Shown here: in pieces, positions 502-16,196 of the stretch
Position numbering within the stretch: position 1 is the first letter of the stretch
Layout: each line of letters starts with the position of its first letter
Source of the DNA: a virus
Taxonomy: Duplodnaviria > Caudoviricetes
Reading direction: 5' to 3' (one strand)
DNA: 64,000 bases
IMG/VR virus record: IMGVR_UViG_3300028909_000001
Position numbers and translations under genes: made by a program
Notes under the pieces: generated by a model
Seen by the model: only the letters and a program-made list of their open reading frames with translations
The model's database searches: none
Told to the model about the DNA's origin: nothing

Positions 502-503
502 TT

Positions 504-1202
504 GTGAACAATCATATAGATCCATTATATAGTTTGCCTATTCCAAAGAATGTGCGTGGTTTTTTCGATCCAGAGAAGACTAGGGAATGGTTACATACTA
601 AAGCCTTGGATTCTTTTCAGAAGAAGCTTAATACAATTGAAAGTCCAGCCTACAAACTAAAAGTAACAGACTTATCTTATAATGCTCCTGAACATTCTCC
701 AACTTATAAAGAACAAAATAAGGCTATAATGGAGAAAAGAGATTTGTCCACTCCATTACGAGGTACTTTTCAGATGATAGATAAGAAAACTGGTAATGTA
801 TTAGATACCAAAACTACAACTATCGCTCATATCCCCTGGCTTACTGAAAGGAATACAGTAATCTTACATGGTGCGGAATACTCAGTTGCACATCAACAAC
901 GTTTACTACCAGGTGTCTATACTCGTACTAAGGAATCTGGAGAAGCTGAAGCCCACATCAATGTCTTACCTGGAACTGGAGTAGGTGGCAAAGTAATTTT
1001 TTACCCTGACCGTGCATTATTCGTTTATCAAGTTGGAACTACTCAAATTAAGCTATATGGATTACTTAAAGAAATGGGCGTATCTGATAGTGAGATGGAG
1101 AAAGTTTGGGGTTCTGAAATATTCAATAAAAATAAATCTCAATATACTGGACTAGAATTTGATAAATTGTATAATAAAGTCATAGGTAATGAAGAAGAAT
1201 AA
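504..1202 (+). CDS. rpoB: DNA-directed RNA polymerase beta subunit, N-terminal fragment (232 aa)
   Basis: RDLSTPLRGTFQMIDKKTG...IPWLTERNTVILHGAEYSVAHQQRLLPGVYT aligns by eye with the RpoB N-terminal block TYSAPLRV...IPLMTxxGTFIINGxERVIVSQLxRSPGVYF. Confidence 0.85.
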   Translation: MNNHIDPLYSLPIPKNVRGFFDPEKTREWLHTKALDSFQKKLNTIESPAYKLKVTDLSYNAPEHSPTYKEQNKAIMEKRDLSTPLRGTFQMIDKKTGNVLDTKTTTIAHIPWLTERNTVILHGAEYSVAHQQRLLPGVYTRTKESGEAEAHINVLPGTGVGGKVIFYPDRALFVYQVGTTQIKLYGLLKEMGVSDSEMEKVWGSEIFNKNKSQYTGLEFDKLYNKVIGNEEE

Positions 1203-1214
1203 CTACTCAAATAT

Positions 1215-1499
1215 ATGTCGAACGAAACACAATTAGAACAGCAATTGAATGCTGAATGGAGAAAAACTATTAAAGATAATCTTGAAGAACTCAGGACTGG
1301 TCAAAAACAATTAGCTAAGGATATTACTGATATTAAGCTAAGTTGTGCTCAAGCAGATGAAGTAAAAAGTCTGAGAGAAAAGGTCGAAAAACTTGAATTA
1401 TCTAAAGCTAAAACTACTGGAGTATTGGTAGCCGTAAATGTGATATTAATTTTTGCGGGCTGGTGTATTCAGACTTTACTGCTTGTACATCATAGTTAA
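1215..1499 (+). CDS. Coiled-coil protein with a C-terminal transmembrane helix (XhlA/holin-like)
   Basis: Heptad-rich N-terminus followed by hydrophobic GVLVAVNVILIFAGWCIQTLLL. Confidence 0.5.
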   Translation: MSNETQLEQQLNAEWRKTIKDNLEELRTGQKQLAKDITDIKLSCAQADEVKSLREKVEKLELSKAKTTGVLVAVNVILIFAGWCIQTLLLVHHS

Positions 1500-2194
1500 G
1501 CAGGCCTTCTTCTTTCATTTCTTGGTAAGTTGAATTGTAGATATTTCTCATACTTTCTAGTCAGTCCAATTCTGTCTTCTAGAAAGCCTTGATAAATATA
1601 GTTACCGAATTTATAACCACCACAAATGCTAGGTATAACTATTCTAGAACCCTTATGTCCAGTTTTTTTATTAATCTCCCTCCCTATTCTATAATGAATC
1701 TCCATAGGTAATACTAATTTCTCAAAAGCAGACCAATCTTGAGTGTAGGGACCACAAATACTATAAGAACAATGACCATCTCTGGATATACAAAAACAAC
1801 CATCCCCATCACTGTAACCCCTCCACCAGTAATGAGTTAGGTTTTCAGGTATAATGCTTAATATTGTAGGAGCTTGATCTTTACTTCTATAATTGTAACT
1901 AATTAATTTAGTTGCTAATTCTACACTACCTTTTTGAAAACTCATTTGTAATTGCCCTGGTGGATTTGTTTTTTGTATATTTCTACGTATATTCCAATTC
2001 CAGGCTTTCATAAGTGTTGGTTCAATAATTACTGCATCAACTTGTTTTATAGCTATTTTAATTTTATTTTCTTTAGATATAGACCCGTCGGCCCAGATAA
2101 ATCCTAACGTATATGCTGTCTCTGCTGTTATATTAGTTAAATCCATATAATGACAGTACACATTAGCTACCACGCTGTCAATATTATAGCGCAT
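1496..2194 (-). CDS. Free-standing double-motif LAGLIDADG homing endonuclease
   Basis: Two motifs: AYTLGFIWADGSI and YWWRGYSDGDGCF. Confidence 0.85.
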   Translation of the reverse strand: MRYNIDSVVANVYCHYMDLTNITAETAYTLGFIWADGSISKENKIKIAIKQVDAVIIEPTLMKAWNWNIRRNIQKTNPPGQLQMSFQKGSVELATKLISYNYRSKDQAPTILSIIPENLTHYWWRGYSDGDGCFCISRDGHCSYSICGPYTQDWSAFEKLVLPMEIHYRIGREINKKTGHKGSRIVIPSICGGYKFGNYIYQGFLEDRIGLTRKYEKYLQFNLPRNERRRPA

Positions 2195-2201
2195 ATATCT
2201 G

Positions 2202-2230
2202 TTGACTAAACTTATAATAATAGTTAATAT
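2202..2230 (+). promoter_or_regulatory. Sigma70-like promoter upstream of the structural gene at 2281
   Basis: TTGACT-N17-TAATAT. Confidence 0.5.
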
Positions 2231-2280
2231 AGAAATATACGAATAAACAATTATGTTTATTTTAACTAATTATACAATCT

Positions 2281-3414
2281 ATGTCAGACGCCTCTAGTAT
2301 TAGAAGGACATCAGCAGTTTTAGCTCCAACTTCTGGTAATGCTAACCCTAAGCCTGGTACATTGCCTGGAGTTTTGACTCCTGGTTCACAACAAAATAAC
2401 CCTGGTGGTACTGGCTTTGCTGGTGCTCAAGCCACAGCAGCTGGATTTTTTGCTGGTGGTATCAGATTTTGTTTAAATCCATCTGGGTATTATTTCACTT
2501 ATACTGATACAAGTGGTATTAGTAGACTCCGTGAAACTGGTCAGGCTTACATTAATACAGGCACGCAGTGGACTCCAGTTGGTAACAATCCACTAGATAT
2601 CAATGTCCCCCTCGCCGCTAATGCTATTGATCAATATGTTTATGTAGCTGACCGTCCTTATAACGTATTGAGTGGTTCATTTGTATATACTACTCCTGGT
2701 GGCTCTTCTTGTGCACTTCAGTTAGGTGTATGTCCTTTCTCTCAAGGTATATTAGCTGGTGCTGGTACTATTACTACTACTAACTCTTCTGCTACTGTTA
2801 ATGGTGTTAGTACTACATTTACTTCTGCACTAATTGGTTCCGCAATTTTCAGTCCTTCAGGTACTTATATTGGTACAGTCTCAGCTGTAGGTAGCACAAC
2901 CTCTCTTACATTGGCTGTGGCTGCTTCTAATGCATGGGGTGGTGGTACTCAGGTATTGACTGGTTCTGCCTGGAATTACGGCCCTTATCTTACTGGTACT
3001 GGTAACCTTACTGCGTCTACTGCAACTTCTGCTGTGACTGTTACTGCTGCTGGTTTTGCTAGTTCTGTTACAGTTGGTAGTAACTTGTATGATCAATATG
3101 GTAGAACTCTTGGTGTGATTGCTTCCGTTAATAGTACTACATCTCTTACTCTAACCGCCAATGCTGCTTTTAATGCAGCTGCTACAACTTGGTCATATAG
3201 CACCTTGTTTATTGGTGTGCCAGCTTATGGTACTAATGTGTTTACTGCTACCATCCCACTCACTGCAAGTCCGGGTATTGTACAAATTGGTACTTTGAAT
3301 GCCACTATTGCTAATACTCAAATAACTACTGGACAGGCTTTGGCCCTTAGATTTACTGGTACTGTCACAGGTTTGGCTGGGTTGACTGGTACTGTTATCT
3401 TGCAACCTCAGTAA
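2281..3414 (+). CDS. Gly/Thr/Ala-rich virion structural protein (fibre/decoration-like)
   Basis: Beta-strand-rich low-complexity sequence with an internal repeat (GSxIxxxxGxxxGVIxSVxSTTSLTLxxxA twice). It lies in the structural block. Confidence 0.6.
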   Translation: MSDASSIRRTSAVLAPTSGNANPKPGTLPGVLTPGSQQNNPGGTGFAGAQATAAGFFAGGIRFCLNPSGYYFTYTDTSGISRLRETGQAYINTGTQWTPVGNNPLDINVPLAANAIDQYVYVADRPYNVLSGSFVYTTPGGSSCALQLGVCPFSQGILAGAGTITTTNSSATVNGVSTTFTSALIGSAIFSPSGTYIGTVSAVGSTTSLTLAVAASNAWGGGTQVLTGSAWNYGPYLTGTGNLTASTATSAVTVTAAGFASSVTVGSNLYDQYGRTLGVIASVNSTTSLTLTANAAFNAAATTWSYSTLFIGVPAYGTNVFTATIPLTASPGIVQIGTLNATIANTQITTGQALALRFTGTVTGLAGLTGTVILQPQ

Positions 3415-3432
3415 GCTATTTAATCTTATCAC

Positions 3433-3464
3433 AAAGCAACCTATTTACTTAGGTTGCTTTTTTA
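3433..3464 (+). terminator. Rho-independent terminator
   Basis: AAAGCAACCT-N8-AGGTTGCTTT followed by a T run. Confidence 0.75.
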
Positions 3465-3501
3465 TTTGACAACTTTCCTCTATTTTGAAATGATACTAAA
3501 C

Positions 3502-3756
3502 ATGAATGAACAAGCTACGTTAGACACACCAGTGATACCTAATTTTAAGATGTCGACTGAGCAGATAGTTAAGTTATTGCAGGGTTATTTGGCACAAGCA
3601 GATACTAGTTTAACTAGTTTACAATCTAATATAGATGATGCTACAAATAAATTGAATGAATGGAAGAGAATGCAGTTGATTATAGTAGGACAGAAACAAT
3701 TGATACAAGATATACTAAGTAAGACGGTAGACACACCTAAAGAAGAGACTAAATAA
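3502..3756 (+). CDS. Hypothetical coiled-coil protein (likely start ATG 3502 rather than 3454)
   Basis: ATG 3502 follows a TTGACA promoter-like site. The tracked upstream extension runs through the terminator. Confidence 0.6.
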   Translation: MNEQATLDTPVIPNFKMSTEQIVKLLQGYLAQADTSLTSLQSNIDDATNKLNEWKRMQLIIVGQKQLIQDILSKTVDTPKEETK

Positions 3757-3759
3757 ATT

Positions 3760-3954
3760 ATGGCTATAACGCTAAATGACACCAAGACTAGAATATACAA
3801 CCTTTATATAGAACAGTTGGAAGCAGAGGAAGAAAAGAAAGCTACTAGTAAGATGCATTCAGAAAATATTAAACGGATTAAATCTGAAATTAAGGATATT
3901 CTGAATGAAGAAGCAGAAGTTGTAAAGAATGCTCAAAAGAGTATTGACGATTAA
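3760..3954 (+). CDS. Small coiled-coil hypothetical protein
   Basis: 64-aa charged helical ORF tightly packed after the previous gene. Confidence 0.6.
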   Translation: MAITLNDTKTRIYNLYIEQLEAEEEKKATSKMHSENIKRIKSEIKDILNEEAEVVKNAQKSIDD

Positions 3955-3970
3955 ATAGATTGAAGTAATA

Positions 3971-4008
3971 TGAGGCTAGGCTATTTAATGTAGTTTAGCC
4001 TCATTTTA
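3971..4008 (+). terminator. Terminator-like hairpin
   Basis: TGAGGCTAGGCTA...TAGTTTAGCCTCA followed by TTTTATTT. Confidence 0.65.
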
Positions 4009-4013
4009 TTTAT

Positions 4014-4394
4014 ATGATTGATATTTTAATTTCATACCTATTATTAAGTGCAAGTATAGCCATGTTTTTAGTTATATGGTTTAATAATACTTTTGTTGAA
4101 TATATGAATTTACTAAGATTGACTAAGTTCTTTTATATAGAAGAATACAATAATATTACTGTAGATGACCCTAGTTTGTCTTATCTAGAATATTTAGCTG
4201 CTAATCGGTCTAACTTCCTTGTAAAAATTATTAGTTGTCCCAAATGTATAGTAGTCTGGTTATCTATACTATTACATATTCCTATTATCGTATTTATAGA
4301 TTTTCCTTTAATATTTATTCCTGTAAGTATATTTATAGCAGCTTACTTTAGTTTGCTAATGTACTATATTTTGGTTAAACTAATGAATAAATGA
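4014..4394 (+). CDS. Small membrane protein, DUF1360-like
   Basis: Hydrophobic helices flanking a IISCPKCIVVW (CPxCxxxW) motif. Confidence 0.55.
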   Translation: MIDILISYLLLSASIAMFLVIWFNNTFVEYMNLLRLTKFFYIEEYNNITVDDPSLSYLEYLAANRSNFLVKIISCPKCIVVWLSILLHIPIIVFIDFPLIFIPVSIFIAAYFSLLMYYILVKLMNK

Positions 4395-6211
4395 GTAATA
4401 GTTTCATAGATAGCTTGATTGAGGTAACTAATTCTACTAATCATCAAGCACAGTATATACCACAACCGTCTAGTAGTATTCCTAGTTCTGGATGTACTTT
4501 ACCAGCATTGCTCACACCTCCTACTATCGGAGCAGTCACACCACCATCTAATGTAAAAGCTTGTGTACCTTTATTCGTACAATTTCCATTAGTACCAGAA
4601 CCCTTTCCATTACCTGAGAATTGCCCTTCAGGTATTTCATTTACTCCTAATACTCAAGCTATAGGGATATTAAATACTTCTGGAATGATTCCTTATACTT
4701 CTATTACTGTAGGTATAACTCCAGGAGTTGATGTTTGTCATTTTAATTTAGACATCCCACCTACACTAATTATACCTTGCTATCCTACTGGTCCTTTATT
4801 TAGTGGAGTTTTACAGTTTAAGATGGTTGGTGATGGTTCTCCAATTGCAGATGATTTTTCATTAAGCACTACTAGAATTAGTGGAGATATAACCCAGCCT
4901 TGTACCTGGAATATTGATACTATAATAAATCTACCAACCCCTAATTGCGCAGCTGGTATTTCATTTCAGAGCAATGTAACGGTAAATCTAAATAATAGTA
5001 CAGCTCTACCACCAGTAATAACATATTTATATTCAAGGGTTTATTCTATAGGACAGAGCATAATTGATACTAATGGAAATCTACAAACAGTCACTGCTAT
5101 TACTGGTGATGGTACATCCGGTGTAACTGCTCCTACCTGGGCTATATCTGGTACTACTGTAGATCATAATGTTACCTGGACCATGTCTCAAGCATCAATA
5201 AGTAACTATGCTTATGTTGATGTTTTAAGTCAGTATGATTATTATAGATTAATACATGGAATTCCCCCTACTACCAAAGATTGCGGTTCAGTATTGTTAG
5301 GTAATCTTGAATTAGGTATTGTTTGTCCATCAGGTTTAAGTGTAGGAGGTAGTGGGACAGCTACCTTTTTATTCCCTGGTGATATAGGTTATAGTGCTCC
5401 AGTAGGTGATCCAACTATTGCGTTATCTATTAGTTCTTGTAATTTAAATTTTGGTATTACTAATATAAGTTTCCCGGCTTTAAAATGTGCTTCAGGTTAT
5501 ACAGCAAACGCAGTTTCAGTAACTAGTGTAAAGGATGTATTAGGAAATACAGTTAGTCAGACTGGTGGAGGAAATACACCTTTTCAAATAACCCCCTCAG
5601 CTTGTTTAGGATTATCAAATCTAGGTAATCTAATAGTTCCTGGTTGTGCTCCTGGTAATTTTGTTAATTGGTATTTAAATTCTTCTACTTCAGGTGGAAC
5701 TACTACATTATCTATTTCTAGTGGTTCTCCTACTACTAGCAGCTATTTAACTGTAACTCCTACTACTTGTGGTATAACTCCTTCTGGTTCATTTTCATTT
5801 AGCAGTGCTTCAAGTTTAGGAATAACTGATGGTACTACAAGTTTAAGTAATGTATCTAATATTACTTTTAATGGAATGACAGTTGGAGGTACTAGTGGGG
5901 CAGCTACCGTAACTGGAACTAAGTTAACTGATGGCACTACTACATTAAATGGGGCACAGATGCTTACTTTTGTAGGTGGTACTTTAAGTGGTACTACTTC
6001 CAGTGCTACAATTACAATAAGTCCAGCTGGTTCCGGGCTTAATTATCGAGGAGTTTGGAGTGCATTATCTACTTATAATCTTAATGATGTTGCAGTATTA
6101 GGGGCAGGTACTTCGTCTGGTATGTATATATGTTTAATAAATTCTAATACTAATAGTCCTGATACTGGTACTGGCTGGTTTCAAGCCTGTTCTTATGCTA
6201 CCTGGTTATAA
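4391..6211 (+). CDS. Virion structural/tail protein with CBM-like repeats
   Basis: Pro/Cys-rich N-half, a YSIGQSIIDTNGNLQT...PTW...TVDHNVTW module, and a C-terminal YRGVWSALSTYNLND CBM5/12-like motif. Confidence 0.6.
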   Translation: MSNSFIDSLIEVTNSTNHQAQYIPQPSSSIPSSGCTLPALLTPPTIGAVTPPSNVKACVPLFVQFPLVPEPFPLPENCPSGISFTPNTQAIGILNTSGMIPYTSITVGITPGVDVCHFNLDIPPTLIIPCYPTGPLFSGVLQFKMVGDGSPIADDFSLSTTRISGDITQPCTWNIDTIINLPTPNCAAGISFQSNVTVNLNNSTALPPVITYLYSRVYSIGQSIIDTNGNLQTVTAITGDGTSGVTAPTWAISGTTVDHNVTWTMSQASISNYAYVDVLSQYDYYRLIHGIPPTTKDCGSVLLGNLELGIVCPSGLSVGGSGTATFLFPGDIGYSAPVGDPTIALSISSCNLNFGITNISFPALKCASGYTANAVSVTSVKDVLGNTVSQTGGGNTPFQITPSACLGLSNLGNLIVPGCAPGNFVNWYLNSSTSGGTTTLSISSGSPTTSSYLTVTPTTCGITPSGSFSFSSASSLGITDGTTSLSNVSNITFNGMTVGGTSGAATVTGTKLTDGTTTLNGAQMLTFVGGTLSGTTSSATITISPAGSGLNYRGVWSALSTYNLNDVAVLGAGTSSGMYICLINSNTNSPDTGTGWFQACSYATWL

Positions 6212-6214
6212 ATT

Positions 6215-9109
6215 ATGTCTGTAGCTCCTGGTAATAACTTTAAATTAACTGATTTACAAGCATTAGCAACTCAAGCTAATGCAGTCTCATCTACTAGTTT
6301 TGACTTGAGTACATTTTATTATGTGTATCCAATGTTTTATGACTTAAGTAGTAATCCATATGGTTATCGTATTTGTGGTGCTTTTGCTTTAACTGCTAGA
6401 GGAAGTGGTTATGCTGTTGGAGATATAGTAGTTTCCCCAGGCTATACTACATATTTTGAAGTTGGTTCAGTAGATATTACTGGAGCTATTATAGGATTGG
6501 TAACTTATACTAATTCTGCCTTTTCTCCTTCCGGTGATCTGACTACCACACCTCCATTCCCTTCATATACAGACCCTACTCCTGGCGCACTTAATACAGT
6601 AACTGGTTCTGGTACTGGAGCTACTATTACTTTTACTGTTAGTCAAGTAGGCCCTTCTCAAAATTATTCATTTCCAGACTATAATCCTGGTAATGGTTAT
6701 TTTACCGATTTTTATCTTTGTTTTGGAGGTACTGGTTATACTGCTGGCGATAATTTAACTTTGCCTGGAGCTAAGATAGTTGGTGGCAGTCCAGTTCCAG
6801 TACATGTTGTAAGTGTTGATGGTAGTGGCAAGATATTAACATTCACATTACCTAATACTACTTATATAGGATTTCTTCAATACTTATCTAATACTCCACA
6901 ATATTTAGCTGCTAGTGGTGGAACCGGTAGTGGGGCAACTTTTGGTGGTTTGTTTATAGTTCCTCAAAGACCTACTTGGCTAGCTGAACTAAATAGACTT
7001 CGTAGTGCTATTTGGGGGTTGAAGGATTTGGATGATTCTTTTACATTTATGAATGTTACTTCACCTTCATTATTGTGTGTTTCTGGACCCTGGCCTGTAG
7101 GTGGACCAAATGATAATTATGCAAGTACCTGGTTTTATTTTGAAGATACTGGTGGTGGAGCAACAGTTACAATTAGTAGTAATTTCCCTGGTAGTGGTGC
7201 ACCTTTTTCTGCAGGTTTAAGAACTAATGCCGTTTGCAGTATGCTTTTGTCAACGTTTCCACCATCACCATACTATTATCCAGTAACAACAAAGCAACGA
7301 CAAGCCTTTGTGGTTGGTGGTGTTGATTCTCTCTTTGTTAGTGGGACCTTCCATATAACTGCGGAGTATGTGCGTGGAGGGACTGCTGTGATAACATACC
7401 CTGGACCAACCACAACCATTACACCCGATACAGTTGACCCTAATACGCTTTGGTCTGTAAATCTATCTCCTAGTGGTGGTTATAATGCATTTCCTGGTTC
7501 AGTTTCTTATTCTACATTGGTGGCTGATACAGGATTTTGTAGTATTGGGATTGTCGAAATTTCAATAGCGGTGAGCGCGACTCTAGCACCGGGGCGGTAT
7601 GAACTTGAGGTGGACATACCACAATTACCGGATGACACATCAGTTCCTATAACCGGTACACAGACCACATATACACGCCTTTTCCCAAATGGCACTAACC
7701 CACTAGATGATGGCAGCGGCGGCAATGGAAAATTATTTGGCCCTGTCACAGCCAGTATTAGTTATAGTACAGCAGTTACAGCTTATGGAATTGATAATGC
7801 ATGGCCAATTAAAAAGATAAACTTACCTGGTGATGGACTTTCTCACGGCCCAGGATTATTATTTGTGCAGGATATACCTAATAATAATTGGAATTCTGGA
7901 GCTGGCCCTACATTTCCTGCTATTACATATGATCCGGAAAAAATATTTGGTAATGGTTGGAGTATTGGTACTAGTAAGGCTGGATTTTGGTCTTCAATGT
8001 CACCTGCTATTAGTAGTTTAGCTATTCCTAGTTTAACTTCAATGCCTTGGAATTTAACTAGAACTAAATATGCAGTAGCCGGTAATGCTACAGTAAATCC
8101 AATGCTACAAGGTGATTTGGCTCCTAACGGTTCAGGTATGTTTGGTGCTTATGCTCAAGTATCTAACTCATATAATCAACTCAGTCCAGTAGAAAGTCAA
8201 TCCGAGCCTCCTAGTTGGGCTGCTTCTATATATTTTACGTCTGGATTTACAATTATAGATTCTAACGGTAATTATCAAACAGTATTTACAGGTGGTATAT
8301 CTGGCGGTTCACATCCAGTTTGGTCTGGGGCATTTGGTGGATCTACTACTGATAATGGAGTGGTATGGCATTGTTCTAAAGTATTTACTGCACCGGCTAC
8401 TACTTGGATAGCTAGTACAGTATTTCAATCAGGACAAACTATAATAGATTCTAACGGTAATATTGAAACTGCTCAAAATACCGGTACTAGTAATTCATCA
8501 GCACCTGCCTGGCCTGGAACTTTAGGAGGTACAGTAACTGATAATACTATAACCTGGAAATTTACTTCTCGTTATCAAGCTTTCCAACCAGGCCAACATA
8601 GAATCCCACCACTTCCTAGATACCCTGTTTATTGGTATAGTGAGACAATTCCTAGAATGATGCCCCCTACACTTACTAGCGGTAATACTATTTGGGGAGC
8701 TTATGATCAGTGGCAATATAATACTTATAATTCTCCTAGCTTTGATCAAGGTTGGCATCAAGTAGGTCCTACTGATACACCAGCTAAAGGAAAAGCTTAT
8801 GGTTGGTGGATATATAGTGTATCTATTAATAGAATAGCTAGTACTGCTGGAACCGTAGCTGTAACTTTAGGATGTATTAGAAGTAGTGTATTTAGTCCAT
8901 TTGCAACTTATAATACTGGTACAACTAATCAAGTTCTTTGGCCCATATTTACAAGTGATGCCTTAGTATATCAATGTAGTGAAAGAGTTGATGTTCAAGC
9001 ATTAGCTATTGCTTCTACTAATAGTGTATCTCAAGGTCAAGTAGTACAATCTCCTATATGTGCAGCATTTGTTACCGATACTTCAGCTTTAATATCGCTA
9101 ATAACTTAA
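6215..9109 (+). CDS. Large tail fibre/baseplate-associated protein (964 aa)
   Basis: GSGYxVGD / GTGYTAGD repeats typical of phage tail/baseplate proteins, plus two W-anchored modules. Confidence 0.65.
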   Translation: MSVAPGNNFKLTDLQALATQANAVSSTSFDLSTFYYVYPMFYDLSSNPYGYRICGAFALTARGSGYAVGDIVVSPGYTTYFEVGSVDITGAIIGLVTYTNSAFSPSGDLTTTPPFPSYTDPTPGALNTVTGSGTGATITFTVSQVGPSQNYSFPDYNPGNGYFTDFYLCFGGTGYTAGDNLTLPGAKIVGGSPVPVHVVSVDGSGKILTFTLPNTTYIGFLQYLSNTPQYLAASGGTGSGATFGGLFIVPQRPTWLAELNRLRSAIWGLKDLDDSFTFMNVTSPSLLCVSGPWPVGGPNDNYASTWFYFEDTGGGATVTISSNFPGSGAPFSAGLRTNAVCSMLLSTFPPSPYYYPVTTKQRQAFVVGGVDSLFVSGTFHITAEYVRGGTAVITYPGPTTTITPDTVDPNTLWSVNLSPSGGYNAFPGSVSYSTLVADTGFCSIGIVEISIAVSATLAPGRYELEVDIPQLPDDTSVPITGTQTTYTRLFPNGTNPLDDGSGGNGKLFGPVTASISYSTAVTAYGIDNAWPIKKINLPGDGLSHGPGLLFVQDIPNNNWNSGAGPTFPAITYDPEKIFGNGWSIGTSKAGFWSSMSPAISSLAIPSLTSMPWNLTRTKYAVAGNATVNPMLQGDLAPNGSGMFGAYAQVSNSYNQLSPVESQSEPPSWAASIYFTSGFTIIDSNGNYQTVFTGGISGGSHPVWSGAFGGSTTDNGVVWHCSKVFTAPATTWIASTVFQSGQTIIDSNGNIETAQNTGTSNSSAPAWPGTLGGTVTDNTITWKFTSRYQAFQPGQHRIPPLPRYPVYWYSETIPRMMPPTLTSGNTIWGAYDQWQYNTYNSPSFDQGWHQVGPTDTPAKGKAYGWWIYSVSINRIASTAGTVAVTLGCIRSSVFSPFATYNTGTTNQVLWPIFTSDALVYQCSERVDVQALAIASTNSVSQGQVVQSPICAAFVTDTSALISLIT

Positions 9110-9151
9110 TTGAATTGACTGGTATATCAAGTTTGTGTTAGAGTTGGAATT

Positions 9152-9745
9152 ATGGAAACATCTAATGCGATTGATTATAATTCTTGTACTGTTTTAAGAG
9201 GAGCCCAACACACTGAAACTTGTGAAGCTCATGGTGTTTATACTGCTAGATGTATAGACTCTAATAATAATTTAATTTGGGAAGATACTATAGATAATGT
9301 AGTTAATACTGAAGGTAAAAACCTGGCTTTTAATACATTTTTAAACGGCTCTGCTTATACTGTTACTGGGCCTTATATGGGTTTAATTAGTTCAGTATCT
9401 TATTCTACCGTAGCTGCTGGTGATACAGCTGCTCAAATTAATGGTACTAATGGTTGGAAGGAAGCAGGTTCCAGCACTAATTATCCATTATACACTACTC
9501 CTAGAAAAACTTGTGCCTGGTCTGCTGCTTCTGCTGGTTCGATTTCACTTTCCGCAGCTCTAAGTTTTCCTATTATCACTACTGGTGGTACAGTTAAAGG
9601 ATGTTTTATTATCTTTGGCTCTGGTGCTTCGTCCACTATTGCTAATACTTCAGGTACTCTTTGGTCTGCTGGTCTATTCTCAGGTGGTGATAAGATTGTT
9701 AACCCTGGTGATACAATTCAAGTATCATATAGTACTAGCATGTAA
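9152..9745 (+). CDS. Putative minor tail protein
   Basis: HGVYTARCxD...W...NVVxTEG pattern recalled from phage tail proteins. Structural-block context. Confidence 0.55.
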   Translation: METSNAIDYNSCTVLRGAQHTETCEAHGVYTARCIDSNNNLIWEDTIDNVVNTEGKNLAFNTFLNGSAYTVTGPYMGLISSVSYSTVAAGDTAAQINGTNGWKEAGSSTNYPLYTTPRKTCAWSAASAGSISLSAALSFPIITTGGTVKGCFIIFGSGASSTIANTSGTLWSAGLFSGGDKIVNPGDTIQVSYSTSM

Positions 9746-9748
9746 TAT

Positions 9749-12700
9749 ATGGCTTTTGATGCCCATTCAAATCTAGCAATATCACAAGTAGCCACTGCTC
9801 CATCACCACCTACTTCTGGTACTTCACTAACTGTAACTACTGGTCAGGGTGCATTATTTCCTACTCCCCCATTTAATTGCACTGTCTGGCCTTCAGGTGT
9901 TATACCTACTACAGTTAATGCTGAGATTATTAGGGTTACTGCAGTTGCCACTGATACATTTACTATAACTAGAGCACAAGAAGGAACATCTGCTGTATCT
10001 ATTGCTGTAGGATACCAAATAGCCAATACTGTTACTAAAAAGGTAGTTACAGATATTGAAAATGCAATTCCTACTACGTTACCTCCTAATGGTTCTGCTA
10101 GCGGTGATTTATCAGGTAGTTATCCAGGTCCTACAGTAGCAAAGATTAACGGCACTTCTTTAGCAGGATTAGCTACAGGGTTATTAAAGAATACTACTGG
10201 TACTGGTGTTCCTAGTATTGCAGCGTCTGGTGATTTGCCTGGTGGGCCATATTTAGGTGCTACTGCCTCTGCTTCTGGTGATTTATCAGGTAGTTATCCA
10301 GGTCCTACAGTAGCAAAGATTAACGGTACTTCATTAGCAGGTCTTGCTACCGGTATACTTAAAAACACTACTGGTACTGGTGTTCCTAGTATTGCAGCGT
10401 CTGGTGATTTGCCTGGTGGACCTTATCAAACGACAGCATCTTATGGTGTGTTAGGGTTTTCTTCAGTAGCTACAGCTGGAAGTACAACTACATTAAGTGG
10501 ATCAGCTACTAATTATATAATTTTTACTGGTACATTAACTCAGATTTGTGTACTACCTAATGCCACTACACTTTCTAATGGGGCGTCATTCTTTATTGAT
10601 AATAGTTCAACTGGAGCTGTTACTGTAAATATGAATGGTGGAACTACTTTATGGATTGTAGGAGCTGGAGCATTTTTAGAGTTAGTATTAACTAGTAATG
10701 GAACTTCAGCTGGTACCTGGAATACTCAATATTTTGGTAGTACGGTATCAACAGGAAAAGTCATTAACTTAGCTGATAATTTAACATCAGTAGCCAATAC
10801 TCCAGGGGTATTTCAGAATGATGGAAGTGGTAATATATCTTACGGTCCACCACCACCTACTATAACCCAACTTGATCTTTGGGGACATTCCTGGCTTGAT
10901 GATATAGTTTATATTACTGGCGCAAATCAAATTACTGATCCTGCTGAAATATTAAATAACGTACTTACAAATGCTTTGGGAATTTCTCAAGATAGAGTAA
11001 GAAATCATGCTAGGAGTGGTGCAAACCTTACGTCTCAAGGATGTTTAATGGGCGGTTATATGAGGTTTTTAACTGAAATAACTCGTACCAAAAAATATTC
11101 TCCATTTTATCGACAAGGTGGTTTATCTGTAATTGTATATGGTATTAATGATTTAGGTAATAATACATCAGCTAATCAATCATTAATGCGCTCAGTATTT
11201 TCGCAAGCCTTAACCATGGCTATTAGTAGAATAAGAGCTTCAGCTATTTTTCCTTGTGGCACTGGGTTAGCTCAATGGGCTTTTGGTACTAATTATGCAG
11301 CCGGTCCAGTAGCTAACCTTGAGTGGATGTCTACTGTTGGAATGCAAGCAACAGTAGTAGATTCTGGTGGTACTTCTACAGCAACTTTCACCATTCCATT
11401 TGGCTATAAAGGAGAACCAATAGGATTTCTATTAGTTGGTACTTCCGGAGCAACTTCAGGTATTGTTACTTGGGGTGGAAATATTACTGGAACTAGTGGT
11501 ATTATTGGAACTACTACCACTTTAAACTCTACTTCCATAGATGCTCATGGACCTGTATTCGTTAGATGGACTTCTGGTACTAATGGATTATCAGCTGCTA
11601 ATGCTGGTCAGACTATTACTATCAAGGTAACTACTGCGAGTGGGACAGTACAATTAGATTCAGCCTGGATTGAATCTCTTAAACCAAATCCTGTAGTTGT
11701 AGCCAATGTATATCAATGTGATTGTAGAACTATTACTTACGCTTTAGGGGATGGGGTAACTTCTGGTGTTACTACTTCTTTTACTTCTGGTTCAGCCAAT
11801 TTTAATTCAAGTACTGATGCTGGAAATTCAATAACTGAGACTGATGCTCAAGGTGCTTTTACTTCTGGTAAGACTATTTCATCTGTAACTAATGCAACCA
11901 CCATAGTATTATCAGGAAATGCTACTGGTGCTTTTACATCCATTAAATATACTTTTGGGCGTATTTTAAACGGTTACGCTAATTATGCTACTAATACAGA
12001 TTTTAGTGGGGCAACTCCAGCTAGTCATAGTGCAGCAGACACAGATTTACAAAATTTAAATAGCACAATTACTACAGTAGTTAATTCATTCGATTCAATG
12101 GTTCAATTAGCTGACGTAAATACAGCTATGGGGATTGGTGGAACTGGAACTCTGCCTACTAACGTCTATACAACATCTGCTGATGGTTATCATCCTAATG
12201 CGGTTGGAGCAGCTTTGGCAACTAATGCTATATTTGCTGCTATTAAGAAGCTAGTACCTGTTGCTGATGGTTTAGGGACTCTAGGTGTATTAGAGACACA
12301 GACTCCACAAGGTTATCCAGTCGCTCCTAAACGAAATATTATTCGTCCTGGTAGTAATGTTTATTTACCTGAATTTGGTGTTTGGGGTGCTACATATACT
12401 GCAGTTGCTGGTGATACGTTTGCTATTCCTTTCTGGGTATCAGAAGGTGGGGCTAATATTACTGCATTCCAAGTACAACAAACCAATGCTCCTGCTACAG
12501 CTGGATCTAACGTAAGATTTGGTATTTATGATGATACTATGTTTACAGGTTATCCTTGTAACCTTAGATATGAAGTTACATCAGGCGGTGCATTTGCGAT
12601 GGGAACTACTGCAGCTATAAAGACTATTGGAACTAATACTTTTGGATGGCTACGATCAGGACTTTATTGGCAAGTATTTAAGATAGATTCCCTCGGTACA

Positions 12701-12901
12701 ACTGCTAGTATAGTTAATACAATTGGAGGTCCTAGTCCGTATATGCCACAGTGGTTGGCCGCTGGTGGTACTGCTTCACCTATTGCTTGGAAAGTAACTA
12801 GTGTAGCTGCTGGTGCTTTACCTAATGAATTTAGTGCATTAGCTGCTGGTACTGCAGTTACTACAGCTCCAGCTGTAGGAATGACAATAACTGTAACATA
12901 A
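9749..12901 (+). CDS. Tail fibre/spike with an internal SGNH/GDSL hydrolase domain
   Basis: SGNH blocks WGHSW (I), RSGA (II), YGINDLG (III) and DGYHPN (V). The N-terminus has a tandem 58-aa repeat. Confidence 0.75.
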   Translation: MAFDAHSNLAISQVATAPSPPTSGTSLTVTTGQGALFPTPPFNCTVWPSGVIPTTVNAEIIRVTAVATDTFTITRAQEGTSAVSIAVGYQIANTVTKKVVTDIENAIPTTLPPNGSASGDLSGSYPGPTVAKINGTSLAGLATGLLKNTTGTGVPSIAASGDLPGGPYLGATASASGDLSGSYPGPTVAKINGTSLAGLATGILKNTTGTGVPSIAASGDLPGGPYQTTASYGVLGFSSVATAGSTTTLSGSATNYIIFTGTLTQICVLPNATTLSNGASFFIDNSSTGAVTVNMNGGTTLWIVGAGAFLELVLTSNGTSAGTWNTQYFGSTVSTGKVINLADNLTSVANTPGVFQNDGSGNISYGPPPPTITQLDLWGHSWLDDIVYITGANQITDPAEILNNVLTNALGISQDRVRNHARSGANLTSQGCLMGGYMRFLTEITRTKKYSPFYRQGGLSVIVYGINDLGNNTSANQSLMRSVFSQALTMAISRIRASAIFPCGTGLAQWAFGTNYAAGPVANLEWMSTVGMQATVVDSGGTSTATFTIPFGYKGEPIGFLLVGTSGATSGIVTWGGNITGTSGIIGTTTTLNSTSIDAHGPVFVRWTSGTNGLSAANAGQTITIKVTTASGTVQLDSAWIESLKPNPVVVANVYQCDCRTITYALGDGVTSGVTTSFTSGSANFNSSTDAGNSITETDAQGAFTSGKTISSVTNATTIVLSGNATGAFTSIKYTFGRILNGYANYATNTDFSGATPASHSAADTDLQNLNSTITTVVNSFDSMVQLADVNTAMGIGGTGTLPTNVYTTSADGYHPNAVGAALATNAIFAAIKKLVPVADGLGTLGVLETQTPQGYPVAPKRNIIRPGSNVYLPEFGVWGATYTAVAGDTFAIPFWVSEGGANITAFQVQQTNAPATAGSNVRFGIYDDTMFTGYPCNLRYEVTSGGAFAMGTTAAIKTIGTNTFGWLRSGLYWQVFKIDSLGTTASIVNTIGGPSPYMPQWLAAGGTASPIAWKVTSVAAGALPNEFSALAAGTAVTTAPAVGMTITVT
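10103..10426 (+). repeat. Tandem duplication with 174-nt (58 aa) period inside the tail fibre gene
   Basis: GDLSGSYPGPTVAKINGTSLAGLATGxLKNTTGTGVPSIAASGDLPGGPY starts at 10103 and again at 10277. Confidence 0.95.
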
Positions 12902-12905
12902 TGAA

Positions 12906-14669
12906 ATGTTTGGCTCTTCATACTTTGGAGAAGGTTATTTTGGTGGCGATCCTCCATTACCAGATAGGGTAATTGAGGCAGCTAGTGCAGTTGATTCAGT
13001 TAGTGGTATAGCAGTATATAATGTTTCCGTAACAGAAACAGCTTCAGCTTCAGATTCAGTTGATTTAGCAGGTACAGTTTCAGTAACTTTCGGTGGTTTT
13101 TATCTCGCTCAGAATCAATTTGCTGGTGGTACAGCAATTCCTACTTCTCAAACTTATCTAGTTAGTGTAAGTGAATCAGCTTCAGCTCTAGATAGCCCTT
13201 CTAGTATAGCTGTATATGGAGCAAGTGATAGTGAATCTGCATCTGCTACTGATACTCCTAGTTCTACTGCTATATATCCAGGTTCTACTACAGAATCAGG
13301 TAGTGCAGTAGATAGTCCTTCTGTTAATGCTATATTTGCTGCAAGTACTTCAGAAAGTGGTACAGCAACTGACAATCCTTCAGCTAATTCTACTCTTCAA
13401 GCTAGTACTAGTGAATCTAATAGTGCAGTAGATAGTCCTAGTTCAACAGCTACATTTGCAGGGTCCATAACTGAGTCTGCTTCAGCTCTAGATAGTCCAG
13501 CTGGCGGTTATTTAGTAACTATATCTGAATCTGCTTCAGCTACAGAGTCACCCTCAGCTAATGATTTATTAGCAGCAACAGTATCAGAAAGTGGTTCAGC
13601 TTCAGATAATCCTAGTGCTAATGCTTTATTTGCAGGAAGTGTAACTGAATCTGCTAGTGCTTCTGATAACCCTTCTGCTAATGCTATATTTGCAGGTTCA
13701 GTAAGTGAAGCTGCTAGTGCTTCTGATAGTCCTTCATCTACTGCTAAATACAGTGTAAGTATTAGTGAATCTGGTAGTGCAACAGATTCTCCTTCAGCTA
13801 ATTCTACCCTACAAGCTAGTGTAACAGAATCAGCTTCAGCTCTAGATAGTATAGTTGGTGGTTATTTAGTAACTATAACAGAATCAGGAACAGCAACGGA
13901 TAATCCTAGTTCTACTGCTATATATGCATGTTCTACTACAGAATCAGGTAGTGCAGTAGATAACCCTTCAGCCAATGATTTATTAGCAGCTTCTATCACA
14001 GAATCAGTTACCACAATTGATACTCCTAGTTCTACTGCTAATTATAGTGTAACTATATCAGAGTCAGTCTCAGCTAATGACAATCCTTCAGCCAATGATT
14101 TATTAGCAGCTTCTATTACGGAGTCAGGCAGTGCTTCTGATAGTCCTAGCTCAACTGCTACTTATCAAGTTAGTATAAATGAGTCAGGAACAGCCCTAGA
14201 CAGCCCTACAGCTAATTCTACACTATTAGCTAGTATATCAGAGTCAGTCTCAGCTAATGATACTCCTACAGCTAATGATTTATTAACAAGTTCTATTACA
14301 GAGTCAGGTAGTGCAAGTGATTCTAGTTCAGCTTCAGTACTATTCAATACTTCTATTACTGAAACAGCTTCAGCCTTGGATAGTTTATCAGCTATTATAA
14401 GTTCTATAAATAGTGAGTCTGAAAGTGCCTCAGCTATAGATAATACTGATGCCACACTATTAACTCTAGCTAGTGTATTAGAATCTATTACCGCAATTGA
14501 TACAGCTTCAACTAATGCCCCACCTATTATTTATAGTGTAAATGTATTAGAAGCAGCCTTGGCTTTAGACAGTAATATCAACAATAACCCATTTGTTGAA
14601 GGTGTGATTAATAAGAAATTTATAAGTAGATTTCCGGTTCGAAAATCTAAATTATTGGCGAATGTTTAA
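12906..14669 (+). CDS. Ser/Ala/Thr-rich repeat protein (ESxSAxDxPS repeats), probable fibre/structural protein
   Basis: More than 20 imperfect repeats such as SVTESASALDSP and SISESGSATDSPSAN. Confidence 0.7.
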   Translation: MFGSSYFGEGYFGGDPPLPDRVIEAASAVDSVSGIAVYNVSVTETASASDSVDLAGTVSVTFGGFYLAQNQFAGGTAIPTSQTYLVSVSESASALDSPSSIAVYGASDSESASATDTPSSTAIYPGSTTESGSAVDSPSVNAIFAASTSESGTATDNPSANSTLQASTSESNSAVDSPSSTATFAGSITESASALDSPAGGYLVTISESASATESPSANDLLAATVSESGSASDNPSANALFAGSVTESASASDNPSANAIFAGSVSEAASASDSPSSTAKYSVSISESGSATDSPSANSTLQASVTESASALDSIVGGYLVTITESGTATDNPSSTAIYACSTTESGSAVDNPSANDLLAASITESVTTIDTPSSTANYSVTISESVSANDNPSANDLLAASITESGSASDSPSSTATYQVSINESGTALDSPTANSTLLASISESVSANDTPTANDLLTSSITESGSASDSSSASVLFNTSITETASALDSLSAIISSINSESESASAIDNTDATLLTLASVLESITAIDTASTNAPPIIYSVNVLEAALALDSNINNNPFVEGVINKKFISRFPVRKSKLLANV

Positions 14670-14687
14670 GAAGCCCTCTTCTTTCAT

Positions 14688-15374
14688 TTAGTATTCAGGG
14701 ATTAATACTTGTTTATCTAGAATTTCTTTGTGACTCATCCATTTAAGTTTTCCGTGCTTATCCTTCATAATCCTATATAAATTACAATCTGCTCCTTTAG
14801 CTACATTTTGATTTATATAATTAGTAACACCTATCTTCGTGTTTTCTGCAATATGAACGGGATCATAAAAGCCAAAACTAGAAGGACTTACATTTCTAGA
14901 TTCATCTGGTATTGCTGACTCTGATACAATTCCTCCCTGCCCCATCTTAGTTACTTTATGACTATTATCAAAGTGTTCTAATGGATTAATACCTTCAACG
15001 TTATTAGCTAAAGGATTTCCTACAATAACCGACCTGACTTGCTGAGAGAAGAAACCAGGAGTAAGCCAGTTAAGATTCTTTTTCATTTGCATTTTATAAG
15101 CTGCTTTTTGTTGTATTTTACCTGCATCCTTATTTATATGGTCGGCTATAAAATCCTCTAGTCCCATAAATTTGGAGAATTTAAGGTTATCTCGATCATC
15201 ACCTTCAACCTCACCTTTATTAATCTTAATTAATTTTGCTGAACTAGCTAATAAGACTTGGGGACTTATTTTATCCTCATCTACTCCAATATTATTCTTA
15301 ACAATATCTTTATCTAGGGAGGTATGATTTAACCATTCCTTAAATTTAGTTAGTTTCTCGGTTCTAGTTAACAT
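14688..15374 (-). CDS. rpoB: DNA-directed RNA polymerase beta subunit, central (fork-loop/rifampicin-pocket) fragment (228 aa)
   Basis: DDRDNL...INPLEHFDNSHKVTKMGQGGI...ESRNVSPSSFGFYDPVHIAENTKIGVTNYI matches RpoB DDIDHL...NPLxExTHKRRLSALGPGG...EVRDVHxSHYGRxCPIETPEGxNIGLIxSL. Confidence 0.88.
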   Translation of the reverse strand: MLTRTEKLTKFKEWLNHTSLDKDIVKNNIGVDEDKISPQVLLASSAKLIKINKGEVEGDDRDNLKFSKFMGLEDFIADHINKDAGKIQQKAAYKMQMKKNLNWLTPGFFSQQVRSVIVGNPLANNVEGINPLEHFDNSHKVTKMGQGGIVSESAIPDESRNVSPSSFGFYDPVHIAENTKIGVTNYINQNVAKGADCNLYRIMKDKHGKLKWMSHKEILDKQVLIPEY

Positions 15375-15375
15375 A

Positions 15376-16116: not shown

Positions 16117-16163
16117 AGTATTATTCTACTTTCTTGGAACTACTTAAACAATAAAATAAAGTT

Positions 16164-16192: not shown

Positions 16193-16196
16193 TGTT

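Follow-up and report, generated by a model that had tools for sequence, protein, structure and literature searches.

The Beta Subunit of a Bacterial-Type Phage RNA Polymerase Is Very Likely Encoded by Three Scattered Genes

Results

Domain Content of the Beta Pieces

It is very likely that the large RNA polymerase (RNAP) subunits of an uncultured jumbo phage from peat, represented by the IMG/VR record IMGVR_UViG_3300028909_000001 are cut into five genes (P1 to P5), three of which encode beta, and that the three beta polypeptides assemble without covalent link into one bacterial-type multisubunit RNAP. The window, the whole 64,000-nucleotide stretch of this 151-kb record that was analysed, contains the first two pieces, P1 and P2. 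They are confirmed to be consecutive parts of the beta subunit of a bacterial-type RNAP. Both ORFs are at the positions and on the strands originally given, and PDB and Pfam matches, orthologues and the alignment to the phage protein Arash gp206 agree with the predicted homology to RpoB. They are 13.5 kb apart on opposite strands, as had been described.

P1 (504..1202, + strand) starts with GTG and encodes 232 aa. It contains a part of the N-terminal protrusion and the first part of the lobe, and extends to about the conserved 'LYRKLRPGEPPT' segment of bacterial beta. A phmmer search against PDB retrieved the N-terminal regions of bacterial RpoB, and the top match was a cyanobacterial beta (8h3v_A, E 2e-7), whose residues 52-222 were aligned with residues 40-209 of P1. 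P2 (14688..15374, - strand; 228 aa) contains the end of the lobe, the remaining protrusion and the fork/Rif-cluster I-II/fork-loop-2 region, corresponding to about residues 380-616 of E. coli beta. Pfam RNA_pol_Rpb2_3 was detected in P2 (E 1.1e-5; 26 bits against a cut-off of 21). P2 is aligned with residues 426-576 of E. coli beta, the segment for Rif clusters I/II and fork loop 2, and the motifs of the fork loop and the Rif region are retained. Positions 119-185 of the Rpb2_2 profile correspond to residues 7-65 of P2. The break between P1 and P2 is thus within the lobe domain. It is not between the protrusion and the fork, as the prediction had implied.

The third piece, P3, is a 931-aa ORF on the - strand, located ~21 kb before the start of the window; it is ~917 aa long if counted from Met15. 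In it, the beta part with the catalytic barrel, flap and clamp is fused to the N-terminal half of beta'. RNA_pol_Rpb2_6, the catalytic hybrid-binding barrel, was found in P3 at 58621-59685 (- strand) of the genome (E 4.8e-45, 154.7-158.3 bits in Pfam), and this is the sole match in the 151-kb record. Rpb1_1 and Rpb1_2 were also found in P3, and its beta' part was aligned to residues 185-459 of E. coli beta', indicating that the fusion reaches the catalytic Asp loop. The Pfam search did not find the catalytic barrel in P1 or P2. The HMM search over the 151-kb record thus agrees with the expectation of at least three beta pieces; the third is outside the window.

P1, P2 and P3 are each present in a single copy in the 151-kb record, as three ORFs on two strands, and no single polypeptide includes protrusion, lobe, fork and barrel. 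No intact rpoB was found in this record, which is 69% complete based on CheckV, and the missing third could hold a second copy. One relative (G001), whose record is also incomplete, has one Rpb2_6 match. In P5, which corresponds to the C-terminal part of beta', residues 24-330 align to residues 10-336 of Synechococcus elongatus beta' (RpoC2), and P5 begins within ~20 residues of where cyanobacterial RpoC2 does. Neither alpha nor omega was found for the phage RNAP. A weak match to Sigma70_r2 in the record (14.8 bits) is below the cut-off.

Tiling on Single-Chain Homologues

Arash gp206 is a single chain of 1525 aa, and the pieces tile it: P1 at 12-227, P2 at 240-469, P3 at 484-1434 and the C-extein of P4 at 1402-1524. 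Just 12-14 residues of gp206 have no match at each of the P1|P2 and P2|P3 junctions. In several fused homologues inspected by eye, the gap between the P1-like and P2-like parts is 6-18 residues and that between the P2-like part and P3 is 11-16 residues. A full chain of beta plus the N-terminal part of beta' was observed in 62 of the 150 best homologue representatives. None of the 150 includes the C-terminal part of beta' (P5), which is always encoded by a separate gene.

Orthologues of P1 and P2, with 63-78% identity and the same ends, were observed in three IMG/VR contigs. These orthologues and the tiling with P3 and P4 on gp206 indicate that the matches of P1 and P2 are not due to chance.

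Conservation and Gene Order

All three beta genes are conserved, and P1 and P2 are better conserved than most of the adjacent genes. In relatives down to 53% identity, the gene lengths and ends are the same, and the pieces have starts and stops of their own, as originally proposed. The dN/dS ratios are 0.047-0.068 for P1 and 0.059-0.067 for P2, although half of the pairs have a saturated dS. Stand-alone P1 homologues form 208 clusters, and those among the 120 listed are 216-260 aa in length. In the P2 tree, stand-alone P2 forms constitute a clade of 12 rows including P2, with a support of 100. The convergent arrangement, with P1 on the + strand, a cassette, and P2 on the - strand, was also observed in six more contigs (L013, L014, L015, L019, L020 and L021), which come from IMG/VR, JGI and NCBI and represent separate samples and assemblers.

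P1 is the last gene of an operon for small proteins that may belong to the virion or to ejection, with a weak Gly-zipper match. The opening gene of the region between P1 and P2 (1215..1499, + strand) encodes a small coiled-coil protein with a C-terminal membrane helix (XhlA/"hemolysin"-like; phrog_937, E 6e-5). It shares the frame of P1 but is unrelated to RNAP; it was tried as a read-through of beta and rejected, the similarity to beta of the Vibrio phage D181 being low complexity only. Its homologues, 32% identical, are located downstream of P1 in L013 and L014. The next gene (1496..2194, - strand) encodes a free-standing LAGLIDADG-type homing endonuclease (phrog_4645, E 1.5e-20; weak match to Pfam LAGLIDADG_3). 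No counterpart was found in L013, L014, L015, L019 or L021, indicating that it was inserted later and did not cause the beta split. The genome as a whole is rich in homing endonucleases and inteins.

Between the convergent P1 and P2 is a variable tail-fibre/receptor-binding cassette (2281..14669, + strand). It includes a 1050-aa ORF similar to tail fibres (phrog_8469/30299, E 8.5e-13), a 377-aa ORF (phrog_1980, E 3.9e-5) and a weak match to GDSL esterase. The conservation of the cassette ORFs among relatives is limited to their N-terminal parts. The region between P1 and P2 is 13.5 kb here, against 5.3-7 kb in relatives. Directly upstream of P2, with a 1-nt gap, is a gene for a 246-aa protein of an unknown family (15376..16116, - strand; phrog_19005, E 1.3e-33). 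Its homologue is beside P2 in L013 only, indicating that it is an inconstant partner of P2.

Transcription and Signals for Joining

RNA-library contigs from three peat metatranscriptome studies fully cover P1 (242-1434) and P2 (14311-15949), and one of them (14939-15949) crosses the junction between P2 and the 246-aa gene. P1 and P2 are in different transcription units. RNA libraries can contain DNA, but the depth of the RNA contigs is uneven (40-85x at 2281-3960 and about 0-3x at 5100-8500), which argues for RNA rather than contaminating DNA. No RNA joint was found in these contigs, which, as Logan contigs, are blind to strand, transcript ends and rare spliced forms.

No Rfam family, including group I and II introns, was found in positions 1-17000 of the window or around P3. 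Against fused homologues, P1 and P2 leave no more than about 15 residues unaligned at their ends, which is too short for intein halves. The ends have neither a Hint-like block nor a Cys/Ser/Thr +1 context such as that at the P3/P4 junction, where the catalytic loop of beta' carries an intein interrupted after its first 13 residues. The prediction that the piece ends lack introns and inteins is thus borne out by the alignment, Rfam and RNA contigs.

The P1+P2 part of the complex, whose modelling had been proposed as a check, gave ipSAE scores of 0.77, 0.77 and 0.75, against 0.00 for the best control. The model has about 360 contacts, at least 94% of which are shared between runs, and a partner pLDDT of at least 81. 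Of 80 solved complexes, 58 reach the ipSAE mark used, as do 2 of 110 mismatched pairs; the score of P1+P2 may reflect the model's memory of solved RNAPs, in which these segments are one chain.

Break Sites

In the P2 tree, the state changed at least 10 times at the P1|P2 junction and at least five times at the P2|P3 junction. The direction, fission or fusion, rests on this tree, which is unrooted and quick, with 228 columns and many weakly supported forks. L025, from a separate lineage, has the same three pieces, but they are adjacent on one strand. P0139 and P0150 have an insert of ~800-1000 aa containing a pyrophosphatase exactly at the P1|P2 junction; a GNAT domain is also present in P0139. 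In the P2 clade, P0127, P0131 and P0132 have intein-like insertions in the stand-alone P2, at the conserved GGI motif of the fork loop, a sign of functional constraint on P2.

Discussion

Assembly of the Pieces and Alternative Explanations

P1 and P2 would be translated from their own start codons on different transcripts. Most likely, the two products fold together and bind to P3 without covalent link, rebuilding the structure that relatives such as Arash make as a 1525-aa chain, and the assembly would be an active enzyme. Both breaks appear to be in permissive loops, which would have been broken repeatedly and independently in this RNAP lineage, and the first of which also takes large inserts. 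Genome rearrangement in the ancestor of the clade probably scattered the pieces, leaving P1 and P2 facing each other across the tail-fibre cassette.

An improbable alternative is that P1 and P2 are functional but optional: the core of P3 to P5 would act alone at one stage, and P1 and P2 would be added for one form, such as a packaged one, an arrangement that would replace the two polymerases of phiKZ-like phages. The location of P1 at the end of the operon of possible virion or ejection genes, with P2 in another unit, and the single polymerase set are consistent with it. However, fork loop 2 and the wall that the Rif region forms in the active-site channel are both in P2, and relatives make the same parts as a single chain. 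In bacterial RNAP, fork loop 2 and this wall belong to the catalytic core. The interrupted intein between P3 and P4 indicates that joining does occur in this enzyme, but it is very improbable that the beta pieces are joined into a single chain by RNA trans-splicing or by split inteins: the alignment of P1 and P2 to fused homologues reaches within about 15 residues of their ends, which carry no intein signature, and neither introns in the Rfam search nor joints in the RNA contigs were found.

It is even less likely that P1 and P2 are what remains of a broken, decaying rpoB in a phage using the host polymerase or another intact copy. The incompleteness of the record and the abundance of homing endonucleases and inteins, which could break genes, leave some room for this. 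Decay is contradicted by the dN/dS of 0.05-0.07, the constant lengths and ends, the more than 200 stand-alone clusters, the retained motifs, the apparent inteins in P2 of clade members and the RNA-library coverage of both genes. Besides, the active-site wall elements supplied by P2 occur nowhere else in the record. It is scarcely credible that the separation and inversion are an artefact and that the real pieces are adjacent or one gene. The record was assembled from a metagenome, and the tail-fibre genes that separate P1 from P2 vary and are in part repetitive, but independent contigs share the layout and each piece has a conserved start and stop. Moreover, positions 1-10000 of the window are complete in 14 peat DNA runs (100% of sampled words), and a 21.9-kb DNA contig extends from 14087 through P2 and onward.

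Beyond three non-covalently assembled pieces, it is tentatively suggested that the ancestral form in this little-studied lineage was a giant chain of beta plus the N-terminal part of beta', from which multi-piece enzymes were repeatedly derived by fission at two or three loops that tolerate breaks, and that the same loops accept inteins and accessory enzymes such as the pyrophosphatase. Split phage polymerases would in that case be derived forms, not relics of a pre-cellular multi-piece enzyme. With P1 moved behind putative ejection proteins and P2 past the tail-fibre cassette, the timing of each piece could then control polymerase assembly, and perhaps capsid loading.

Comparison with Known Systems

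Split RNAP is already known as a habit of large phages; the layout of beta in three scattered genes is new. Among cultured phages, only Arash and the Vibrio phages D69, D148 and D181 show clear matches to P1 and P2. The identity is 24-32% to Arash and the Vibrio phages (27-31% to Arash). On these sequence matches, the RNAP belongs with the Arash/D181 lineage, in which one chain of beta plus the N-terminal part of beta' is the commonest form. The Arash RNAP (gp206 for beta, gp216 for beta', sigma gp10; PMC10585845) shares the fusion of the C-terminal part of beta to the N-terminal part of beta' and the separate gene for the C-terminal part of beta'. In contrast to the three dispersed beta genes described here, beta and the N-terminal part of beta' appear to be one chain in Arash (gp206, one annotated CDS). 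The same is apparently the case in D69, based on adjacent tblastn matches only. In D181 and D148 there is a single cut at a different site, at about residue 47-65 of P3, with a homing endonuclease in the gap; the clade described here has no endonuclease at either break, and its beta pieces are dispersed and inverted rather than adjacent. No other neighbourhood genes of Arash or the Vibrio phages are recognisably shared with this phage. In mass spectrometry of the Arash virion, gp206, the beta homologue, was the most-detected protein, and Arash also packages a sigma factor (PMC10585845). By analogy with these proteomics, the RNAP described here may be packaged in the virion, as was originally suggested.

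This lineage is probably mReC, described as tailed phages from metagenomes, with some genomes above 200 kb and with beta and beta' close enough to their cellular counterparts to be detected by cellular HMMs (Weinheimer & Aylward 2020, PMC7481178). The present contig resembles them, being from a tailed phage based on tail-fibre PHROG matches, with beta and beta' found by Pfam (E 4.8e-45 for Rpb2_6). Neither split genes nor inteins are mentioned in the mReC paper for its own set; it uses "fused" or "fusion" only for crAssphage and excluded RefSeq phage beta' genes fragmented into several genes (PMC7481178).

The enzyme is not of the phiKZ type, to which the prediction had referred, and its lineage is much closer to bacterial RNAP: P3 matches bacterial beta with E 1.5e-43, and no chain of phiKZ or AR9 is among the best 60 PDB matches. 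The enzymes of phiKZ and AR9 (PMC7598289, PMC7824862) are likewise multisubunit phage RNAPs with beta and beta' in several non-joined polypeptides. Their beta' is also broken after the catalytic barrel, a site reported to be common to phiKZ enzymes and cyanobacteria. They differ in having two enzyme sets (virion and non-virion), against one in the 151 kb here and one Rpb2_6 match in G001, both records being incomplete. Beta is broken as N|C or N|middle|C there and as N1|N2|C here, where its C-terminal part is fused to the N-terminal part of beta'. phiKZ-like phages encode no sigma, whereas Arash, a relative of this phage, carries sigma factors.

Genes in pieces also arise in phages through homing endonucleases and mobile elements. 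In cellular organisms, the cyanobacterial rpoC1/rpoC2 is a natural split of an RNAP large subunit, with beta' cut near the same site as here. Large subunits are also split or fused in archaeal B'/B'', in the Helicobacter rpoBC fusion and in engineered E. coli. The phage enzyme would resemble such cases as an essential multi-domain enzyme that is cut at permissive surface sites and whose products reassemble.

P1 and P2 Encode Consecutive Regions of the Beta Subunit

P1 (504-1202, + strand) and P2 (14688-15374, - strand) are real open frames of 232 aa, with a GTG start, and 228 aa, respectively. The original prediction that the two ORFs represent consecutive regions of RpoB was confirmed. P1 corresponds to the N-terminal 220-odd residues of bacterial RNA polymerase (RNAP) beta, with the cyanobacterial 8h3v_A as the top match (E = 2e-7; P1 residues 40-209 against beta residues 52-222). 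P2 passed the cut-off of the Pfam model RNA_pol_Rpb2_3 and aligned to residues 426-576 of E. coli beta, which contain the Rif clusters and fork loop 2. The Rif/fork motifs, such as the DDRD and G-x-GG-I segments, are kept in the P2 family alignments.

The break between P1 and P2 is placed by these comparisons within the lobe domain, not between domains, because residues 7-65 of P2 match the lobe model Rpb2_2 (profile positions 119-185) and because a fused homologue aligns to S. elongatus beta without interruption across the junction, at around residues 225-240 of S. elongatus beta. The E. coli lobe contains a dispensable insert, beta-i4, at residues 225-343 (PMC2939025). In our own reading of the alignments, the P1|P2 break would be some tens of residues past the beta-i4 site. 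The break between P2 and P3, the next piece, comes after the fork, at approximately E. coli beta 616-640 in the alignments of both pieces.

Two P2 homologues, P0139 (1306 aa) and P0150 (1489 aa), are fused P1+P2 proteins with an insert of ~800-1000 aa at the P1|P2 junction. The insert contains an inorganic pyrophosphatase domain (InPase, E ~1e-56), and that of P0139 additionally contains a GNAT acetyltransferase domain. The polymerase lobe of these proteins thus has a PPi-removing enzyme built in. Because the same spot takes the pyrophosphatase insert, the P1|P2 junction is taken to be a permissive loop.

Three stand-alone P2 homologues (P0127, P0131, and P0132; 47-68% identical) have insertions that read as inteins, two of them mini-inteins and one with a LAGLIDADG-type motif. 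They were recognized by reading the sequences; Pfam made no call. All three are at one site, directly after the fork-loop GGI(P/K/G) motif, with Cys at +1 and the end GN|S.

The Remaining Pieces of the Polymerase

The catalytic barrel had been predicted to be located outside the window, and this was the case. The sole match to Rpb2_6 in the record is at genome positions 58621-59685 (- strand), ~21 kb before the window, inside P3. P3 is a 931-aa ORF whose probable start is Met15. Its beta part matches bacterial beta (E = 1.5e-43) over a span that begins at about E. coli residue 640 and reaches almost to the C-terminus. As Rpb1_1 and the start of Rpb1_2 are also present, P3 is a fusion of beta-C and beta'-N. 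The beta' part corresponds to E. coli beta' 185-459, and its end falls within the catalytic Asp loop.

At genome positions 57206-57238, ~23.6 kb before the window start, this Asp loop is broken by a LAGLIDADG intein, whose first 13 residues are at the end of P3. P4 (573 aa) contains the intein followed by the remainder of the Asp loop. P3 and P4 are separated by a stop codon and 31 nt, P4 is in another frame, and no single indel gives one frame. In the related record G001, the Asp loop is intact, without an intein, and P3 is a 985-aa ORF. P5 (genome 50816-53155, - strand; 779 aa) encodes beta'-C with a Hint mini-intein of ~125 aa (~residues 335-470), which is missing in G001 (636 aa). P5 starts at most ~20 residues from the start of cyanobacterial RpoC2. 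A sandwich-barrel insert with weak matches to Peptidase_M23 and biotin-lipoyl domains was also observed in P5. LAGLIDADG inteins in this genome are present in beta', an SNF2 helicase (genome 61060-63960), and an 852-aa ORF (genome 40783-43341).

Each RNAP piece was found once in the 151,189-bp IMG/VR record, whose completeness is 69% according to CheckV and of which the window makes up positions 80898-144897. In this incomplete record, neither the alpha nor the omega subunit was found. The search for Sigma70_r4 in it was negative, with a single sub-threshold Sigma70_r2 match at genome positions 16517-16594.

Conservation of the Split

Three IMG/VR contigs encode orthologues of both P1 and P2, with 63-78% identity and matching starts and stops. 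Their layout is P1 on the + strand, a cassette of 6-7 kb, and P2 on the - strand. The same layout was observed in two more distant lineages, one represented by L021 (67-68% identity) and the other by L019 and L020 (53-58%). The 11-kb contig L024 (46% identity), which does not include P1, is alike at the P2 end, where P2 converges on a large gene. In G001, P3 is 18 kb from P1, and their relative orientation is unchanged. It is unlikely that the split is an assembly artefact, because the layout is repeated in independent assemblies and the region is covered by DNA data: 14 peat DNA runs contain the first 10 kb of the window in full, and a 21.9-kb DNA contig extends from 14087 across P2 and onward.

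Pseudogene decay, which would have spoken against the original prediction, was not seen. For pairs with estimable dS, dN/dS was 0.047-0.068 for P1 and 0.059-0.067 for P2. A word-indexed search revealed 208 clusters of stand-alone P1 homologues, on contigs of up to 293 kb; among the 120 listed, the lengths are 216-260 aa. These comparisons indicate that the split is old, conserved, and under selection.

Genes Between and Beside P1 and P2

The designation of the genes between P1 and P2 as a tail-fibre block is reasonable, based on modest PHROG matches. The first gene of the block encodes an XhlA-like small membrane protein (1215-1499), in frame with P1. Read-through of the P1 stop codon into this ORF was considered, as the tblastn alignment of beta from Vibrio phage D181 crossed the stop; it was rejected, as the stretch aligned past the stop is low-complexity coiled coil and the ORF resembles XhlA. 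In L019 (10678-11337) and L021 (10711-11340), a ~210-aa PAS-domain protein is encoded right after P1, replacing the XhlA-like ORF.

A free-standing LAGLIDADG homing endonuclease gene (1496-2194, - strand) separates the XhlA-like gene from the first tail-fibre-like gene. This endonuclease gene is seen in this genome only and is absent in all six related contigs. As no relative carries it, this endonuclease beside P1 was ruled out as the cause of the split. The tail-fibre-like genes that come next show strong variation among relatives. Within the first 17 kb, a 377-aa ORF and the small genes behind it (2281-3960, + strand) stand out by far in RNA-contig depth: they reach 40-85x in three metatranscriptomes, and most neighbours 10x or less. 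The ranking is rough, since contig depth is a whole-length mean. They probably encode an abundant structural protein.

Upstream of P2 is a gene for a 246-aa protein of phrog_19005 (15376-16116, - strand), which is beside P2 in one relative only. Motifs are visible in this protein near residue 55 (Cys-containing) and near residue 178 (GGH), and Pfam gives no match. The six genes upstream of P1 yielded only a weak Gly-zipper match with Pfam and PHROGs, which leaves their reading as a virion operon tentative.

Joining, Transcription, and Contact of the Pieces

The earlier view that the ends of P1 and P2 show no intron or intein signature was upheld. The unaligned ends are ~15 residues or shorter, too few for intein halves. 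Rfam gave no match in window positions 1-17000 with E up to 1, nor around P3 at the gathering score. Metatranscriptome contigs from three peat studies cover P1 (242-1434, 440-932, and 488-1010) and P2 (14311-14950, 14939-15949, and 14572-15099). No joint was reported in these contigs, which are blind to strand, ends, and rare forms. There is no sign of trans-splicing, which the original prediction had named as a possible refutation. The depth of the contigs is very uneven, from 40-85x at 2281-3960 to ~0-3x at 5100-8500, which favours RNA over carried-over DNA. Over parts of the tail-fibre cassette, RNA contigs are sparse or absent, which is taken as neutral.

When the P1 and P2 family alignments were modelled as a complex, the ipSAE values were 0.77, 0.77, and 0.75, against 0.00 for the best control; 58 of 80 solved complexes and two of 110 mismatched pairs reach this mark. 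Contact agreement between runs was at least 94%, partner pLDDT was at least 81, and ~360 contacts were predicted. Because solved RNAPs hold both segments in one chain, the modelled contact points to likeness to beta and is no proof of binding between these two proteins.

Sites resembling sigma-70 promoters numbered 51 in window positions 1-17000 (shuffle expectation 64), and those resembling terminators 13 (shuffle expectation 9.8). Neither count is informative, and the phage is likely to rely on its own polymerase.

Cultured Relatives and Diversity of Architectures

Among 50,697 phage records, tblastn detected P1 and P2 matches in Salmonella phage Arash and Vibrio phages D69, D148, and D181, where the two matches adjoin on one strand. 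P1 had one further weak partial match (E = 3e-4), in an unannotated 5-kb human-faecal "Bacteriophage sp." contig. Arash gp206, a single 1525-aa protein, is covered by P1 (12-227), P2 (240-469), P3 (484-1434), and the P4 extein (1402-1524). No domain is lost between the pieces, and the P1 and P2 ends have no spare length. No gene neighbourhood shared with Arash or D181 beyond the RNAP genes was detectable by tblastn. In virion mass spectrometry of Arash, gp206 yielded more spectra (3516) than any other protein, and beta' and sigma were detected as well (PMC10585845). By analogy with the Arash proteomics, the RNAP of this phage may be packaged in the virion.

In D181 and D148, a 514-aa gene corresponding to P1+P2 is followed by a homing endonuclease gene (10878-11495 in D181) and then by the rest of the chain (a 1006-aa ORF). 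In the closely related D69, the tblastn matches are continuous, without this gap. The D181/D148 cut is thus read as an independent event at another position, with the homing endonuclease gene in the gap. Set against D69, it has the appearance of a recent gene-in-pieces event.

An exhaustive HMMER search with P2 yielded 1025 representatives, 120 of them with E <= 1e-30, and the best 150 of the 1025 were classified with the pieces of this phage. The full chain of P1, P2, P3, and the P4 extein (1450-3089 aa) was the commonest form (62/150), followed by P1+P2 and the beta part of P3 (27), P1+P2 only (18), P2 alone (17), P2 fused to the rest without P1 (15), P1+P2 and whole P3 without the P4 extein (6), and P2 with the beta part of P3 (5). 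None of the 150 includes beta'-C.

A quick maximum-likelihood tree was built for the P2 region, from 148 rows and 228 columns. In it, the clade of stand-alone P2 sequences to which this phage belongs is one group of 12 rows with a support of 100. State changes number at least 10 at the P1|P2 junction and at least five at the P2|P3 junction. In L025, from a separate lineage (34-37% identity), P1-like (238 aa), P2-like (272 aa), and P3-like (1029 aa) genes are adjacent on one strand. They are cut at the same two places, and the P1 of L025 has an acidic tail end too. The P1|P2 cut in L025 is probably independent, because its nearest relatives in the tree have P1 fused. Given an unrooted tree with many weak forks, fission from a fused ancestor is proposed only as the more economical reading, not as a demonstrated one.

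Significance and Comparison with Known Polymerases

The fragmentation is real, and the original interpretation is supported with refinements. Beta is encoded here by three dispersed genes, within a lineage of bacterial-like phage RNAPs that most often make beta + beta'-N as a single chain. In the Arash-type lineage, beta exists side by side as one chain, in two pieces, and in three pieces that are either adjacent or scattered, and all are readily alignable to bacterial RNAP. As breaks recur at the same loops and all these states are found in an alignable lineage, the direction and mechanism of subunit fission become testable. The recurrent breaks and inserts at the same loops are the part most worth following. 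The two natural sites in beta for cutting or domain loading, inside the lobe and after the fork, are useful for split-polymerase engineering. For annotation, many peat and freshwater jumbo-phage contigs have "hypothetical" genes of ~230 aa beside tail-fibre genes, and these genes can now be labelled RNAP beta pieces.

This phage matches the description of the multi-subunit-RNAP-encoding Caudovirales (mReC; PMC7481178), of which it is a candidate member. Neither split genes nor inteins are mentioned in that study for its own mReC set. Having the large subunits split is characteristic of phiKZ-like phage polymerases; it is disputed whether this state is primitive, as PMC7824862 argues, or derived. 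In phiKZ-like phages, the enzyme forms from its pieces with neither alpha nor omega, and the cut in beta' is close to the cyanobacterial site (PMC7598289). The enzyme of this phage resembles theirs in that it is also in pieces, no alpha or omega was found, and beta' is cut near the cyanobacterial site. Unlike in phiKZ-like phages, only one enzyme set was found, the enzyme shows strong similarity to bacterial beta, beta is cut at other places, and beta-C is fused to beta'-N, with a cultured relative, Arash, carrying sigma factors in the virion. The enzyme is not one of the phiKZ-like polymerases.
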